From Escherichia coli (GTDB lineage: Bacteria; Pseudomonadota; Gammaproteobacteria; Enterobacterales; Enterobacteriaceae), in NCBI RefSeq assembly GCF_022846255.1, contig NZ_AP025682.1: a DNA stretch of 64,000 bases. One strand, written 5' to 3'. Every line of letters starts with the position of its first letter. The stretch's first letter is position 1. The position numbers and the translations under genes were made by a program. The notes under the pieces were generated by a model. It worked only from the letters and a program-made list of their open reading frames with translations, had not been told where the DNA came from and did not search any database. Of the stretch, positions 2,601 through 48,450 are shown in pieces.

Positions 2601-4154
2601 ATGGATATCATTGGCGGACAACATCTACGTCAAATGTGGGACGATCTGGCGGACGTTTACGGTCATAAAACGGCGCTGATTTGTGAATCCAGCGGCGGAG
2701 TCGTTAACCGGTATAGTTATCTTGAGTTAAATCAGGAAATTAACCGCACGGCAAACCTGTTTTATACGCTGGGGATTCGCAAAGGCGACAAGGTTGCTCT
2801 ACATCTCGACAACTGCCCGGAATTTATCTTTTGCTGGTTCGGGTTGGCAAAAATTGGCGCGATTATGGTGCCGATTAACGCCCGCCTGTTGCGCGAAGAA
2901 AGCACGTGGATCCTGCAAAATAGCCAGGCATGCCTGCTGGTGACCAGTGCGCAATTTTATCCTATGTATCAACAGATTCAGCAGGAAGATGCCACGCAGT
3001 TGCGGCACATTTGCCTGACAGATGTGGCACTTCCCGCTGATGATGGCGTGAGTTCGTTTACTCAACTGAAAAATCAACAACCTGCCACCTTGTGCTATGC
3101 ACCCCCGCTATCGACTGACGATACGGCGGAAATTCTCTTCACCTCCGGCACCACCTCCCGACCGAAAGGTGTGGTGATTACCCATTACAACCTGCGCTTC
3201 GCTGGATATTACTCCGCCTGGCAGTGCGCACTGCGTGACGATGACGTCTACCTGACGGTAATGCCTGCGTTTCATATTGACTGCCAGTGTACTGCGGCGA
3301 TGGCGGCGTTTTCTGCCGGGGCCACCTTTGTGCTGGTCGAGAAATACAGCGCCCGCGCCTTCTGGAAACAGGTACAGAAGTACCGTGCCACCGTCACCGA
3401 ATGTATTCCGATGATGATCCGTACGTTGATGGTGCAGCCGCCTTCTACGAACGATCGGCAACACTGTCTGCGGGAAGTGATGTTTTATCTCAACCTGTCG
3501 GAGCAGGAAAAAGACGCCTTTTGTGAACGCTTCGGCGTTCGCTTGCTGACGTCTTATGGGATGACGGAAACCATTGTTGGCATTATCGGCGATCGCCCCG
3601 GCGATAAGCGTCGCTGGCCGTCGATTGGTCGGGCGGGGTTTTGCTACGAAGCGGAGATCCGCGACGATCACAATCGCCCGCTCCCGGCAGGTGAAATCGG
3701 TGAAATCTGTATTAAAGGCGTACCAGGGAAAACCATCTTCAAAGAGTATTTTCTCAACCCGAAAGCCACTGCGAAAGTGCTGGAAGCCGATGGCTGGCTA
3801 CATACCGGCGATACCGGATACCGCGACGAAGAGGGCTTTTTTTATTTCGTCGATCGCCGCTGCAATATGATCAAACGCGGTGGCGAGAATGTCTCCTGCG
3901 TGGAGCTCGAAAATATCATCGCCACCCATCCCAAAATTCAGGATATCGTGGTTGTGGGTATTAAAGATTCGATTCGCGATGAAGCCATCAAAGCATTTGT
4001 GGTGCTGAATGAAGGTGAAACATTGAGCGAAGAGGAATTCTTCTGCTTCTGTGAACAGAATATGGCGAAATTTAAAGTGCCCTCTTATCTGGAGATCAGA
4101 AAAGATCTGCCACGTAATTGCTCGGGGAAAATAATTAGAAAGAATCTGAAATAA
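2601..4154 (+). CDS. caiC: carnitine/crotonobetaine--CoA ligase CaiC (AMP-binding family)
   Basis: ORF 2586..4154; start placed at MDIIGG (517 aa) as in the K-12 protein; alternative upstream ATG at 2586. Confidence 0.9.
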
Positions 4155-10814: not shown

Positions 10815-10860
10815 TCCAGAGAATATTCACTCACTTTATTTGCATATTAATTCACAATGA
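10815..10860 (-). promoter_or_regulatory. carAB P2 promoter region with tandem ArgR operator boxes
   Basis: minus-strand sequence TGAATTAATATGCAAATAAAGTGAGTGAATATTCTC immediately upstream of carA start matches the ArgR box pattern. Confidence 0.6.
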
Positions 10861-11262
10861 TGACGTAAATCAATGCAAATCTGCTTACCGACGAATTTCT
10901 GGCAAACGGCGGCATTCTGGAGATATGGGCGCTAAAAGTCAACTTAATGGCGGGATTTTTTATATTATTTTGTGGCTCATGCATGTTTTACAGGCATTAA
11001 GCGACAAAAAGATCATATAACATGTTCTGGAAAACGCTTGCGCAGCAAGAAGATTGCATGAAATCAAAATGAGCAGAAAAAAGTGGACCAAATGGTCAAA
11101 ATTTACATTAAAACAACAAAAACAGAATGCAAAACATATAATTTTCAGCATTTGCATTAAATTTAAAAGCATAAAACCAAAAATAAAAGGGCCAAAAATT
11201 AAAGCCCTTTATATTCAATGCATTAAATGTGTTATTTTTGCATCACTATAAATATTTTGTGG

Positions 11263-28688: not shown

Positions 28689-28939
28689 TTTTTATTTCTC
28701 TTTCAGGTGAATAGATCGTTTTTACTATTTTACCCCGCACGAATCATCGTTAAAATCAGATTATAGTGTAGGAATAATTCGTTTTTTACGAACCATTGAA
28801 GGATTTGTGCCATCAGCGATGAGATGAGTTTTTGACGGCTGTAAGCGCTGACGTGTGACCCTAAGCCCTGATAATCATAGCTTAAGGTGAGGATTTCTGA
28901 GGGATTAATTAGGAAAAGTAATAATAAAATCGCACTGTG

Positions 28940-30184
28940 CTATAGCTGTTTATTCCAGAGATGCTTGAAAATATCTAATGTTGAGACAACATTGGCAGGC
29001 GACATTCGGTTTAATGAGGGTAGAAAGGGATGAGCCTCCAGGAAGTTGATAAAACGAGTCGCGCTTGCTAACGTCGAATACCGCATTTCATTTGCTTTCT
29101 TGTTTCCTGTAAGGTTACAAACAGCCATTGAATAATCACGGGCGGAAAATGCACGCCAAACATTATTTCTCACGCCATCACTCAAAAACAACCGCGGCGG
29201 CGTATCATAATGAGTCGTTTTCTCGCCGCGTTCTTTCACAAATGAAATATGGCACCGGCCTTGATGAATATGCTGTAAATTAGCCATTAGACAACCGCCT
29301 AATATAAAGCACTCGTGATCAAGGTAGTGTTGAATATTTATAGAATATGCTTCAGTCAGTGCTCTAACCAGTTCAAAATGGCGATATGCCGGAAGAACCG
29401 GTTTCACCAGCATCCCCGGATCGTTTTGATGTAATATCGCCCGACCATAATCAATATCAAATAAGGTATCACGCCGCATAGTAAGTAACTCCTTGCGTTG
29501 TACGTGATGCGCCAGTGTACCTGGAGACAAACGCTCTTCATAACTTGATGCATATTGATAATGCGACTCTACCGCTGATGAAGAATAATTTGTTGAAATA
29601 GCGACGACTCTACCGCTTTGTTCTTCTGCGGTAACAAGACTATAAAGATAGTTGTTACTACCGTTAAACTTTACGCGAAAAGCGCGGGTAGCGAGAGAAA
29701 TATCAGAAGCAGAAGAGTACTGGCAACTTTCTTTATAGTTTACTTCCCGGGCTAGTTTCATCAACTCACGGTTAAGCCCTGTGCTATTAAGAAGTAATAA
29801 TTTACGGATATCTGCAAGTGAAGCGCCTTGCTCAATCATCAATGCTAAATGTGTTCTTCGCGGCGTTGTATTTACATGATCCAGAGTGATAAAAGTTCTG
29901 GAACAATGATGACAATACATTCTCCTCTGCCCCTGAGCTGAATAGCCATACTTTTTCAGAGATGTGCTTCCGCAAGCTGAACATTGTGGAACCAACCCTC
30001 TCCATGAATGATTAACACGATTACGATAAATATTAAGAGATCGTTCAGATATCACAGGAAACAAGTAACCGCATTCACGGCATAAAATATTTTTACCCTG
30101 TGCGACATAATCCTGGCTATTCAGCACCCCCAGGTTTTTACATCCTGGTGTTTTGCAACAATCAACATTTACGTTGGTAAACAT
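28940..30184 (-). CDS. Cys-rich protein with tandem zinc-ribbon motifs and putative HTH; function unknown (possible regulator)
   Basis: ORF 28940..30190; ATG at 30184 with GGGAG SD; two CxxC...CxxC pairs in first 100 aa. Confidence 0.6.
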   Translation of the reverse strand: MFTNVNVDCCKTPGCKNLGVLNSQDYVAQGKNILCRECGYLFPVISERSLNIYRNRVNHSWRGLVPQCSACGSTSLKKYGYSAQGQRRMYCHHCSRTFITLDHVNTTPRRTHLALMIEQGASLADIRKLLLLNSTGLNRELMKLAREVNYKESCQYSSASDISLATRAFRVKFNGSNNYLYSLVTAEEQSGRVVAISTNYSSSAVESHYQYASSYEERLSPGTLAHHVQRKELLTMRRDTLFDIDYGRAILHQNDPGMLVKPVLPAYRHFELVRALTEAYSINIQHYLDHECFILGGCLMANLQHIHQGRCHISFVKERGEKTTHYDTPPRLFLSDGVRNNVWRAFSARDYSMAVCNLTGNKKANEMRYSTLASATRFINFLEAHPFLPSLNRMSPANVVSTLDIFKHLWNKQL

Positions 30185-30312
30185 ATCCACTCCCTGCGAA
30201 TAGCCGTATCTTGATATTGTTCAACGCGAAAAGAACCTGATTCAATGCGTAGCACTGAATCAGGCGGGCATAGCCCTAAATGGCATACATTACATTTATT
30301 ATGATTATCAGG

Positions 30313-31806
30313 TTAGCCCCAGGTCACCGCTTCTGGTTTATCACCTCTGGCTTTCATTAGAGAATCATTATCAATATCAGTTTTATATTTTAAAAACTTA
30401 CCATACATCTGTTTTTCAATATCTGGTTTTTTACCGATCAGATTAAGTGTTTCAAAACGATCAGATTTCAGATTGTAGAGATATTTCGGTTTATTATTGC
30501 GATCGATAATCATCTTCCAGTCACCATCACGGATCGCCCATTCATCGGTTGGATCATCCTGGAATGGCATGTCAATTCCGAAGATTAATGGCTTTTCACG
30601 TTTTAGCGCCTTGTTCTCAAGGACAGGAACCAACGATTCGCCATCAAAAGTCCGGTCCGTCGGTAATTTGAAGTTCATCATTTTCGCCAGCGTAGGCATC
30701 CAGTCCAGACCATAAACAGGCGTATCTGAAACCATTCCCTTTGGAAGATGTTTACCGTATTTAATAATTGCCGGAACACGAATTCCGCCTTCCCAAAGGT
30801 TATCCTTGCGACCGCGTAATCCATCCGTTTCCCCTGCCAAATTCAGCTCATACACTTTGCGCGCTTCACGCGTTACCGGACCGTTATCACTGGTAAAAAT
30901 AACGATTGTGTTATCTTCTTCACCCATCGCTTTGATTTTATCCAGCACTTTTCCAACCTGTGCATCCAGATAGCTGATATTGGCATAATATTCCCCCACA
31001 CCACGCCAGGGTTTATCCGCCCAGTCGCCATAAAATAAATCAGGATGCTGCTTCTGATAGTCGCTCATATATTGTGAGTACATGTCGAGGTATTTTTTGG
31101 GCGAAGCCAGGGGACTGTGCACTTCGGTAAAAGCGACATAAAGGAAGAAAGGCTTACTATCCTTTTTGTTATCCAACCAGTTAACGACTTCCGAACTGAC
31201 ATACTCACCACTCATTTTATCGGCACGAGGTGTGGGTTGCCCGTTACGCAACCAACCCGTCGGATACACCATGCCAAAACGGGGACGCTCCTTCGCATTA
31301 TCCAGAGTAGCGTCGGTAACAAAACCCGCCGTATTAACCAGTGAGTAATCAAAGCCCATATCTTTTGCCTGAGGCTGATCGGTACGATCGCCGCCTGCAT
31401 TCAGATGCAGCTTACCCATCATTGCCGTGTCGTACCCTTGCGCTTTGAGTAGATTAGCAATCGTGAGTTCGTTACGCCCTAATGCCACATCTTTTCCCGT
31501 TGGGATCCATGAACGTATGCCGGTACGAAATGGCATCCGCCCCGTTAATAACCCCGCTCGCGAAGGAGAACTTAAGGGAGCTGGTGCATAGTAGTCAGTA
31601 AATTTGACGCCCTCCTGGGCAAGCCTGTCAATATTGGGGGTTTTAACGATCTGATGTCCATATGTTGCTAAATCACCATAGCCTAAATCATCCGCCATAA
31701 TGATGACTAAATTAGGTTGTTTAGTCTCGGCAGCTACGACTGGATTAAAAGCATTCCCTGTGCAAACTGCAAGGCCGATCAAACTGGCCATTAATGTTTT
31801 CTGCAT
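30313..31806 (-). CDS. periplasmic Ser-type sulfatase (arylsulfatase family)
   Basis: ORF 30313..31842; ATG at 31806 with AGGGA SD; signal peptide; sulfatase signature PLSSPSRAGLLTGR with Ser at the formylglycine position. Confidence 0.85.
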   Translation of the reverse strand: MQKTLMASLIGLAVCTGNAFNPVVAAETKQPNLVIIMADDLGYGDLATYGHQIVKTPNIDRLAQEGVKFTDYYAPAPLSSPSRAGLLTGRMPFRTGIRSWIPTGKDVALGRNELTIANLLKAQGYDTAMMGKLHLNAGGDRTDQPQAKDMGFDYSLVNTAGFVTDATLDNAKERPRFGMVYPTGWLRNGQPTPRADKMSGEYVSSEVVNWLDNKKDSKPFFLYVAFTEVHSPLASPKKYLDMYSQYMSDYQKQHPDLFYGDWADKPWRGVGEYYANISYLDAQVGKVLDKIKAMGEEDNTIVIFTSDNGPVTREARKVYELNLAGETDGLRGRKDNLWEGGIRVPAIIKYGKHLPKGMVSDTPVYGLDWMPTLAKMMNFKLPTDRTFDGESLVPVLENKALKREKPLIFGIDMPFQDDPTDEWAIRDGDWKMIIDRNNKPKYLYNLKSDRFETLNLIGKKPDIEKQMYGKFLKYKTDIDNDSLMKARGDKPEAVTWG

Positions 31807-31825
31807 AATTATTCCCTGATGAAAA

Positions 31826-32587
31826 TTAGAAATCATAACCAAGCATATAAATCATTTGATCGCCAAAACCATCGTAGCCCAACTTATTATCGAAATAACG
31901 CCACGTCACACTGGCTTTCCAGCGAGGATAAAACTTCCAGGCCACTGTTAAACCGCCATTTAGCCCATTCCTACCAAATTGTTGTTCCGCATAGGCATCA
32001 TTTCTGTCCAGTTCTATTTCATTCCAGTTAGATAAAACAAATTTTTCGTCAAATAACGTAAAAGGTAATACTGCTGTCCAGCCAACAACATAACCATTCC
32101 AACCATTCGTTTGACCATATTTAGCTGAGACGTAGTCACCAGATTGATTATGTAATCCAATATACGGTTTAAAAAAGCCCCACTCGCCGTTCCAGCCGAG
32201 GTAACCGAATCCATAAAACATATCAAGATCGTCACCCCATGAGTTATCCCATTGGCCATAAATTTTGCCAAAGAATGTCATATCAGAGTCAAAGAGTCTG
32301 ACATGCGTCATTGCTGAAACCGTATGATTTCTCCCTGCTACAGCATGATTGAGTACATTACTTTCATAAAATGAGTAAAATTCTGCTTCTTTAAAATTTA
32401 CCCCAAAATCCGCAGTCACTTTCCATACTTCACCACGGTGAGTGTTTACAAATCCACTATTCCAGTCTGCATAACCCGCATTTATTGAACCAAAGGTTCC
32501 TTTATATTCTAATGAAGAATATGCAGGAAAATGATAGATAGCTGTTATCAGGGTACACGCAATAAGAAGTCGTCTTTTGGCAGACAT
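31826..32587 (-). CDS. small outer-membrane beta-barrel channel (KdgM/NanC- or Tsx-like)
   Basis: 253-aa ORF with signal peptide, aromatic-rich alternating pattern, C-terminal ...GYDF. Confidence 0.6.
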   Translation of the reverse strand: MSAKRRLLIACTLITAIYHFPAYSSLEYKGTFGSINAGYADWNSGFVNTHRGEVWKVTADFGVNFKEAEFYSFYESNVLNHAVAGRNHTVSAMTHVRLFDSDMTFFGKIYGQWDNSWGDDLDMFYGFGYLGWNGEWGFFKPYIGLHNQSGDYVSAKYGQTNGWNGYVVGWTAVLPFTLFDEKFVLSNWNEIELDRNDAYAEQQFGRNGLNGGLTVAWKFYPRWKASVTWRYFDNKLGYDGFGDQMIYMLGYDF

Positions 32588-33098
32588 ATAATATGTTCTC
32601 CATTCATTGTTTTTATGATTCCATAGGAATTAATACACCAGACAATTCATTTTTATTAAGAATGACCAGGCCAGTATATTTAAAGATGACTATCGAAGCG
32701 TGATGAAGATCGCAGATTACTTTTGCGAACGGGCGGAGAGATATCGTGTTTCAGAAAATGTGTCTGTTTTAAATATCACCCTTTGATTTATAGGCATTTT
32801 TCATGATGAACTTAGCATTGACTGCTGAACGTATTTCTTTGTCTCTCTATAGTATTACACTAACCTTTAATAATTAATTTCCTTTAGCTATTCACTTTTG
32901 ATAGAGGAAAACACCTTTTTTTGTGAATCCATGGATATTTTTAAGTTAAATAAATTGATGTATTGAAATATTATTCCGTAAAAATGCGAGGCGTCTTCAG
33001 AAAAAGAATTGATAAAACAGAAGTGAATTAAAAGCGCTGTATAATAGCGGCGGGTGCTTGAGGCTATCTGTCTCAGGCATTAGCTGAACGGCAGATAG

Positions 33099-33153
33099 AG
33101 AAAAGCCCCGAGTGATATTTTACCATCAACCCGAGGCCCCCTATATGCTGAAC
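33099..33153 (-). ncRNA. sokC: sokC antisense RNA of the hokC/mokC type I toxin-antitoxin locus
   Basis: placed by recalled K-12 spacing relative to the mokC start; not verified by structure. Confidence 0.4.
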
Positions 33154-33354
33154 ACATGTAGAGTGCCTCTTACTGACCGTAAGGTCAAGGAGAAGAGAGC
33201 AATGAAGCAGCATAAGGCGATGATTGTCGCCCTGATCGTCATCTGTATCACCGCCGTAGTGGCGGCGCTGGTAACGAGAAAAGACCTCTGTGAGGTTCAC
33301 ATCCGAACTGGCCAGACGGAGGTTGCTGTTTTCACGGCTTACGAATCCGAGTAA
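33145..33354 (+). CDS. mokC: MokC, translational regulator overlapping hokC
   Basis: 69-aa frame MLNTCRVPL... fully containing hokC. Confidence 0.6.
   Translation: MLNTCRVPLTDRKVKEKRAMKQHKAMIVALIVICITAVVAALVTRKDLCEVHIRTGQTEVAVFTAYESE
33202..33354 (+). CDS. hokC: type I toxin HokC (Gef), small membrane toxin
   Basis: 50-aa ORF MKQHKAMIVALIVICITAVVAALVTRKDLCEVHIRTGQTEVAVFTAYESE. Confidence 0.8.
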   Translation: MKQHKAMIVALIVICITAVVAALVTRKDLCEVHIRTGQTEVAVFTAYESE

Positions 33355-33428
33355 GAGCAACGGCGGGGAGTGATCCCCGCCACTTTACAGGTGCTCGCAT
33401 ATCTTCAACGCACCCTGTTTTTTACCTG

Positions 33429-33450
33429 GCCTGCCCACGGGCAGGCTTTT
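33429..33450 (+). terminator. hairpin plus T run downstream of hokC (convergent with dnaJ)
   Basis: gcctgcccacgggcaggc followed by TTTT. Confidence 0.5.
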
Positions 33451-33457
33451 GGGGAGG

Positions 33458-34588
33458 TTAGCGAGTCAGGTCGTCGAAAAACTTCTTCACACCATCAAAG
33501 AAGCTCTTTGAGCGCGGGCTGTTGTGCTCGCCGGTTGGGCCACCGAAGCTTTCTTGCAGCTCTTGCAGCAGCTGTTTCTGCTTCTCGTTCAGGCCTACCG
33601 GTGTTTCGACGACAACGCGGCACAGCAAATCACCCTGTGCGCCACCGCGGACAGACTTGACGCCTTTACCGCGCATACGGAACAGCTTACCGGTCTGGGT
33701 TTCGCCAGGCACTTTCAGTTTGACGCGACCATCAAGAGTCGGTACTTCGATTTCGCCACCCAGCGCCGCCATAGCGAAGTTGATCGGGACTTCGCAATAG
33801 AGGTTGTTGCCTTCACGCTCGAAAATCGGGTGCTGTTTAACCTGAACCTGAACGTACAGATCGCCTGCCGGTGCGCCATGCTCGCCCGCTTCACCTTCGC
33901 CCGCAAGACGGATGCGGTCTCCAGTGTCCACTCCTGCCGGGATTTTAACGGACAGCGTTTTGCTGCGCTCAACACGACCATGACCATGACATTTGTTGCA
34001 CGGATCTTTGATCAGCGTACCGCGGCCCTGACAGTGTGGACAGGTCTGCTGTACAGCGAAGAAGCCCTGACGCATCTGCACCTGACCAGAACCATGACAG
34101 GTCGGACAGGTCTGCGGCTGTGTACCTGGTTTTGCACCGCTACCGTGGCAAACGTCACACTCTTCCAGAGTCGGAATGCGGATCTCTTTGGTCACGCCAC
34201 GTACAGCTTCTTCGAGGGTGAGCTCCATGTTATAGCGTAAATCAGCACCGCGCGCCGCACGTTGACGACCACGTCCGCCGCCAAAAATATCGCCGAAAAC
34301 GTCACCAAAAATATCGCTGAAGTCTGCGCCGCCGCCAAAACCGCCGCCGCCCATGCCGCCTTGCTCAAACGCAGCATGACCATACTGATCGTATGCCGCA
34401 CGTTTTTGCGAGTCGGTCAGAACTTCATAAGCTTCCTTGATCTCTTTAAATTTCGCCTCGGCCTCTTTGTCACCCTGGTTACGGTCCGGGTGGTATTTCA
34501 TGGCCAGGCGTTTGTAGGCCTTTTTGATTTCACGCTCTTCCGCTGTTTTGGAAACGCCTAAAATCTCGTAATAATCTTGCTTAGCCAT
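33458..34588 (-). CDS. dnaJ: chaperone DnaJ (Hsp40)
   Basis: ORF 33458..34618; start placed at [13 protein letters not shown] domain, G/F region, four CxxCxGxG zinc repeats. Confidence 0.95.
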
Positions 34589-34676
34589 CTTTTTTGATTT
34601 GCCCCTAGATGAATGCACGGGCGGAGAGGAAATTCCCCTTCGCCCGTGTCAGTATAATTACCCGTTTATAGGGCGA

Positions 34677-48301: not shown

Positions 48302-48327
48302 GGTTGTTACCTCGTTACCTTTGGTCG

Positions 48328-48366
48328 AAAAAAAAGCCCGCACTGTCAGGTGCGGGCTTTTTTCTG
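48328..48366 (-). terminator. thr operon attenuator terminator
   Basis: minus strand AAAAAAGCCCGCACCTGACAGTGCGGGCTTTTTTTT between thrL and thrA. Confidence 0.85.
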
Positions 48367-48381
48367 TGTTTCCTGTACGCG

Positions 48382-48450
<69 letters not shown>

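Follow-up and report, generated by a model that had tools for sequence, protein, structure and literature searches.

The window analysed here, a stretch of 64,000 nucleotides of Escherichia coli DNA, very probably carries an uninterrupted chromosomal hokC/mokC/sokC locus of the hok/sok type, in the arrangement that is found in the majority of E. coli. This complete type I toxin-antitoxin locus extends over positions 33040-33452 and contains all the parts by which its sequence is recognised as a module of the hok/sok type (Hok/Gef): the family toxin, the mok frame, the antisense gene and the family leader. A first-pass annotation of the window had suggested that the locus is in its native and potentially active configuration. 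The term native is supported by the sequence, whereas activity is not established. The same annotation had placed the locus at 33099-33455, an extent that holds for the toxin frames and for the 3' part but leaves out the 5' end, that is, the -10 hexamer of hokC (33040-33045) together with the initial 47 nt of the transcript, where the tac element lies. The features of the locus and of its immediate surroundings are the following (positions and strands are those of the window):

28926-32933, - strand: accessory island of 4 kb, lying between nhaA and hokC (upstream of the latter), where K-12 has 81 bp instead
33040-33045, + strand: -10 hexamer (TATAAT) of the putative hokC promoter
33052, + strand: G, putative transcription start of hokC, to which position 1 of the Rfam model aligns
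33052-33452, + strand: hokC mRNA, full-length form as predicted (about 400 nt); the Rfam match and the terminator hairpin were used to place its ends
33052-33063, + strand: tac element, GGGUGCUUGAGG, at the 5' end of the mRNA; predicted to pair with fbi in the full-length fold
33095-33153, - strand: sokC antisense RNA gene, opposite the mokC start region; K-12 annotation 16952-17010 mapped through the alignment
33133-33136, + strand: candidate ribosome-binding site of mokC, GAGG, 8 nt 5' of the mokC start
33145-33354, + strand: mokC reading frame, ATG at 33145, 69 aa, in frame with hokC and with a common stop
33160-33188, - strand: putative sokC promoter, with -35 TTGACC at 33183-33188, a 17-nt spacer, -10 CACTCT at 33160-33165 and start at 33153
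33187-33192, + strand: candidate ribosome-binding site of hokC, AAGGAG
33202-33354, + strand: hokC toxin gene, 50 aa plus stop, intact
33362-33381, + strand: GC-rich hairpin after the hokC stop, GGCGGGGA/GUGA/UCCCCGCC, starting 7 nt past the stop, intact
33382-33402, + strand: 3' segments predicted to pair with the mokC start region in the full-length fold
33403-33415, + strand: fbi (fold-back inhibition) element, CUUCAA-C-GCACCC, predicted to form 12 bp, interrupted by one bulge, with tac
33428-33450, + strand: terminator-like hairpin, with an 8-bp stem and a 4-nt loop at 33428-33447, followed by UUUU; the stop codon of dnaJ is 8 nt away
33458-34588, - strand: dnaJ, the convergent neighbour, with its stop codon at 33458; 98.8% identical to K-12

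The toxin encoded by hokC matches the Pfam family PF01848 (HOK_GEF) over residues 6-47 with 85.5 bits, the cut-off being 22. The mokC frame, which is also intact, overlaps hokC from upstream with its own start, and both frames end at the stop codon 33352-33354. The nucleotide sequences of hokC and mokC are the same as in K-12, and this identity, the Pfam match and the open reading frames themselves agree with the earlier statement that HokC and the overlapping MokC frame are intact. The codon for Tyr47 of HokC, UAC, is followed by G (33340-33343, + strand) and thus forms UACG, the motif for A-to-I editing by TadA. Editing at this codon would recode Tyr to Cys; in K-12, 9% of the hokC mRNA has been found edited (PMC12214031). 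A 95-aa open reading frame on the opposite strand (33073-33360, -) was discarded as spurious, being wholly antisense to hokC and without support.

The leader of the mRNA is matched by the Rfam family RF01794 at 33052-33204, over the full length of the model, with 120.5 bits (gathering score 59, E = 1e-28), which is far beyond chance. A match to the Rfam family rpsL_pseudo is, on the other hand, attributed to chance (19.6 bits, gathering score 70). It should be pointed out that RF01794 is named 'sok antitoxin' and matches the sense strand of the hok mRNA (33052-33204, +), reaching from the start of the transcript as far as the AUG of hokC; annotating sokC from this match would place the antitoxin on the wrong strand. 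The toxin gene itself, of 153 nt (50 aa), is labelled by PGAP as 'mokC: type I toxin-antitoxin system toxin MokC' in three related genomes (L003, 6753-6905; L006, 545-697; L002, 2479-2631), and neither the 69-aa mokC frame nor sokC is annotated in them. For annotation, the points of use are therefore the upstream reach of the locus to 33040, the gene name given by PGAP and the strand of the Rfam 'sok' match.

The putative hokC promoter consists of the -10 hexamer, and the plasmid hok homologues have TACAAT at the matching position. No recognisable -35 was found upstream of the hexamer at 33040-33045, and the consensus scan of promoters reported none for hokC, its -35 criterion not being reached. 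At the other end of the transcript, the hairpin at 33428-33447 is followed by four T, as expected from the earlier mention of a terminator-like hairpin downstream of hokC; the terminator scan, which needs five T, did not call it. Since the consensus scan flagged neither element, the hokC promoter and this terminator have been placed by homology and spacing. The sokC promoter was not flagged by the consensus scan either, and its spacing agrees with the annotated start of sokC in K-12. The SokC RNA is predicted to fold into a 5' tail, a terminator hairpin and UUUUCUCU (z = -5.5).

In its full-length form the hokC mRNA has a predicted minimum free energy of -168.6 kcal/mol (z = -7.16 against 100 shuffles). 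The pairing between tac and fbi appears in both the minimum-energy and the centroid folds predicted for this RNA; it is a thermodynamic prediction, and the E. coli alleles are nearly identical, with too little variation for covariation. In the same fold the mokC AUG region (33143-33148) is predicted to pair with 33397-33402, and 33157-33164 with 33382-33389. When the 3' end of the mRNA is set at or before 33405, the 5' end is predicted to pair locally with 33103-33109, and this local stem of the shortened RNA is also present in the consensus of RF01794. A 12-bp hairpin at the 5' end (33053-33064 with 33070-33081) is predicted as an alternative fold in one truncation. In the hok model of plasmid R1 the full-length RNA is inert, 3' trimming activates it, and the nascent chain forms a hairpin of its own. 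The three mutually exclusive folds predicted for the hokC mRNA would match this established model.

Taken together with the established scheme of hok/sok in plasmid R1, this anatomy lets us infer the steps by which the locus would work, including transcription, processing and killing. The hokC mRNA of about 400 nt would arise from a weak promoter whose -10 lies at 33040-33045. In this full-length RNA the 5' tac would pair with the 3' fbi, and the mokC start region with the adjacent 3' sequence, so that the molecule would be closed both to ribosomes and to SokC. Slow trimming of the 3' end would then take off fbi, after which the 5' end would refold locally and the mokC start region would be exposed. 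SokC, whose gene is read on the other strand from 33153 to 33095, would pair with this region and block the translation of mokC and, given that HokC translation would be coupled to that of mokC, the synthesis of the toxin as well. Once SokC decays, HokC would be made and the inner membrane would be depolarised.

The comparison with K-12 bears on a statement of the first-pass annotation, namely that an IS186 copy beside this locus is thought to inactivate it in that strain. In MG1655, IS186A (1,339 bp) is located at NC_000913 15387-16731, between dnaJ and hokC. In the numbering of the window it interrupts the hairpin 33362-33381, and it is flanked by a 10-bp target duplication, GGATCACTCC. The target of the element, GGAGTGATCC, corresponds to 33367-33376, which comprises the loop and the 3' arm of the hairpin. 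In the window this target is present once and the hairpin is whole, unlike in the IS186-interrupted ('gef') configuration. No insertion sequence was found in the 103 bp between the stop codons of hokC and dnaJ, and the K-12 homology is continuous across the site once IS186 is removed. This spacing and the unbroken alignment confirm that there is no insertion sequence between the locus and dnaJ. As for the effect in K-12, PMC2654758, PMC7232551 and PMC12214031 state, citing Pedersen & Gerdes 1999, that hok loci of this strain, hokC included, are inactivated by insertion elements. In PMC3562002, with the same citation, the IS186 copy located downstream of gef is presumed to disrupt fbi and mRNA processing, and the gene is described as still transcribed and regulated. 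The first-pass statement on K-12 thus agrees with the literature, both for the position of IS186A and for the inactivation attributed to it.

When the IS186 sequence is left out, K-12 and the window show zero differences over 33140-33416, a segment that includes both frames, the sokC promoter and fbi. The tac element is also the same as in K-12, and fbi is the same in K-12 and UTI89. The differences are one position of sokC (33139), position 33066 in the leader stem, where the window has A and K-12 has G but the pair is kept (A-U versus G-U), and a few changes in the run of T that separates fbi from the terminator. The alignment of the sokC promoter and the fold-back elements, which the earlier annotation had put forward as a check, consequently reveals no disruptive change in promoter, sokC, tac or fbi. 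In K-12 it is the position of the 3' elements that is altered, as IS186 shifts fbi, the partner of the mokC start and the terminator 1.3 kb away, whereas in the window they are contiguous. Transcripts of K-12 that run 100-300 nt into IS186 lack the pairing segments 33382-33402, because these lie beyond the insertion site; for these transcripts the prediction gives the local 5' stem alone, and their ends are never predicted to pair.

The absence of IS186 at hokC is not a special property of this genome. Using a 241-nt query across the insertion site, 3,814 of 5,426 complete E. coli genomes gave a match in a single piece and are IS-free at hokC, and a 521-nt query gave 3,818 (in these counts, query pieces split by the 1.3 kb element were not joined). 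O157:H7, UTI89 and ST131 genomes are examples. The IS-free locus is thus the usual form in E. coli (around 70% of the genomes) and K-12 is the exception, which is in accordance with the suggestion that the configuration in the window is the native one. The remaining genomes (around 1,600 of the 5,426, about 30%) break at the K-12 IS186 site. Queries for the IS186 junctions detected the K-12 orientation in 819 genomes and the opposite orientation in 938; the sum of the two is a little higher than the number of interrupted genomes, since plasmids also have hok-IS186 junctions of a similar kind. In strain T16R, IS186 is at the K-12 hokC site in the opposite orientation, with the same 10-bp duplication as in K-12. 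The element occupies the hairpin in L002 (about 2653-3992) and the homologous hairpin in the plasmid homologue L005 (from about 660 onward). IS-free hokC is already known and has been in the literature since 1999; it has been described, for instance, in AIEC NRG857c (PMC7232551). The window represents one more intact example, of little weight for discovery.

Regarding the neighbourhood, the window runs opposite to the K-12 numbering, so that the nhaA side is followed by the 4-kb island, hokC, and then dnaJ and dnaK (- strand). The island (28926-32933) encodes a zinc-domain protein, a sulfatase and an OmpK/Tsx-like porin, and its position substantiates the earlier mention of a sulfatase module next to hokC. 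The first of these proteins, of 416 aa, has a zinc-binding domain of the IS1/IS1595 type and no Pfam match. The sulfatase has the motif SSPSR, which we take to indicate a Ser-type enzyme by the (C/S)-x-P-x-R signature, and no gene for a sulfatase-maturing enzyme was found within the island. The island is present in 1,271 of the 5,426 genomes with 91-100% identity. Other Rfam matches in the window that reach the gathering score are the tpke11 sRNA (34589-34666, -), between dnaK and dnaJ, the threonine operon leader (48327-48446, -) and the ES003 sRNA (10855-10907, -), all of them expected in this part of the E. coli chromosome.

An uninterrupted locus could nevertheless be silent. According to this reading hokC is intact in sequence, transcribed and regulated, but stays below killing levels as a latent remnant; we consider it quite possible, although a little short of probable. 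It is favoured by the summary of Pedersen & Gerdes 1999 given in a 2026 preprint, bioRxiv 10.1101/2025.08.07.668861, where the IS-free hokC of ECOR24 is reported to show neither post-segregational killing nor activation by rifampicin; intact hokC anatomy need not, therefore, mean killing activity. Killing induced by rifampicin is one of the assays that the first-pass annotation had put forward. The hokC promoter without a -35 points in the same direction, as does the fact that about 30% of the genomes tolerate IS186 at hokC. Against it, the negative killing result comes from a secondary summary, and HokC is toxic when overexpressed (bioRxiv 10.1101/2025.08.07.668861). Besides, tac, fbi and SokC keep their architecture with hardly a base changed in the various E. 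coli lineages, and in the plasmid homologues as well; a remnant in decay would not be expected to be conserved in this way. If the locus is silent, the absence of IS186 makes little practical difference. Stabilisation of plasmids by IS-free hokC was also considered as a function and dropped, since the opposite is what the same preprint reports in its account of earlier work.

A second explanation is that the locus does work actively on the chromosome, not for plasmid maintenance but for some other purpose, such as persistence, phage exclusion, anti-addiction against plasmid hok/sok or stabilisation of the neighbouring island. This seems unlikely. In its favour, every regulatory part is intact, and IS186 has entered one 10-bp target in both orientations in around 1,600 genomes, and the corresponding hairpin of a plasmid homologue as well; if the locus had such a role, the repeated insertions elsewhere would represent selection to switch hokC off. 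On the other hand, IS186 prefers GC-rich targets. The GGGG-N6-CCCC hairpin fits this preference, so that repeated insertion is to be expected from the choice of target by itself. The idea of anti-addiction is discussed in bioRxiv 10.1101/2025.08.07.668861, and the published tests, as that secondary source presents them, are negative. The combined proposal that IS-free hokC/sokC might be a working chromosomal system (persistence, phage exclusion, anti-addiction), and that the IS186 insertions are the outcome of selection acting repeatedly to disable it, beyond mere target preference, is given as a speculation with a slim chance of being right.

Immediately 5' of the hokC -10, at 33001-33039, there is a cluster of 14 substitutions with respect to K-12, UTI89 and O157, between flanks that are nearly identical. 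The patch is found (within 1 nt) in 929 genomes, including Nissle 1917, ATCC 25922 and ST131, and once per genome. Gene conversion from a paralogue was considered as its source and rejected, as a sequence that appears once per genome in 929 genomes corresponds to a lineage allele. Cryptic inactivation of hokC by point changes, for instance by this patch with 14 of 39 positions changed, is very improbable, given that the patch is a common allele, that no change affects the -10 hexamer, tac, sokC, the two frames or fbi, and that a recognisable -35 is absent from both upstream alleles.

The uninterrupted hokC/mokC/sokC locus of the window can finally be compared with several known systems. The closest genome, strain 2013C-4282 (L003), is 99.8% identical and has A for G at 33053, the second base of tac, a change that would turn a G-C pair of the predicted end-pairing into an A-C mismatch. 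The locus of K-12 MG1655, hokC (gef)/mokC/sokC (b4412/b0018/b4413), has the same chromosomal position, between dnaJ and nhaA; it differs in having IS186A in the post-stop hairpin and another sequence at 33001-33039, and in not having the 4-kb sulfatase island. The homologues on the plasmids pNCYU-26-73-2 (L004) and pHZ13-2 (L005), with about 75% DNA identity, have the same 5' end, GGGTGCTTGAGGC, and the same post-stop hairpin, which in pHZ13-2 contains IS186 as in the hokC of K-12. In pNCYU-26-73-2 the counterpart of fbi, CCUCAAUGCACCC, is also complementary to the 5' end. Both plasmid loci differ from the one described here in their toxins, which are 51-aa variants, and in 18 extra nt in the leader.

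The reference system is hok/mok/sok of plasmid R1. It is plasmid-borne whereas the locus of the window is chromosomal, and the latter has mokC and hokC in one frame. For R1 there is documented post-segregational killing; chromosomal hokC reportedly lacks it, as stated in the secondary source mentioned above. The two systems share the Hok/Gef toxin, the overlapping mok frame upstream and the antisense RNA at the mok start, and also, as predicted here for hokC, the pairing of the 5' and 3' ends in the full-length mRNA and the local 5' stem that forms after loss of the 3' end.
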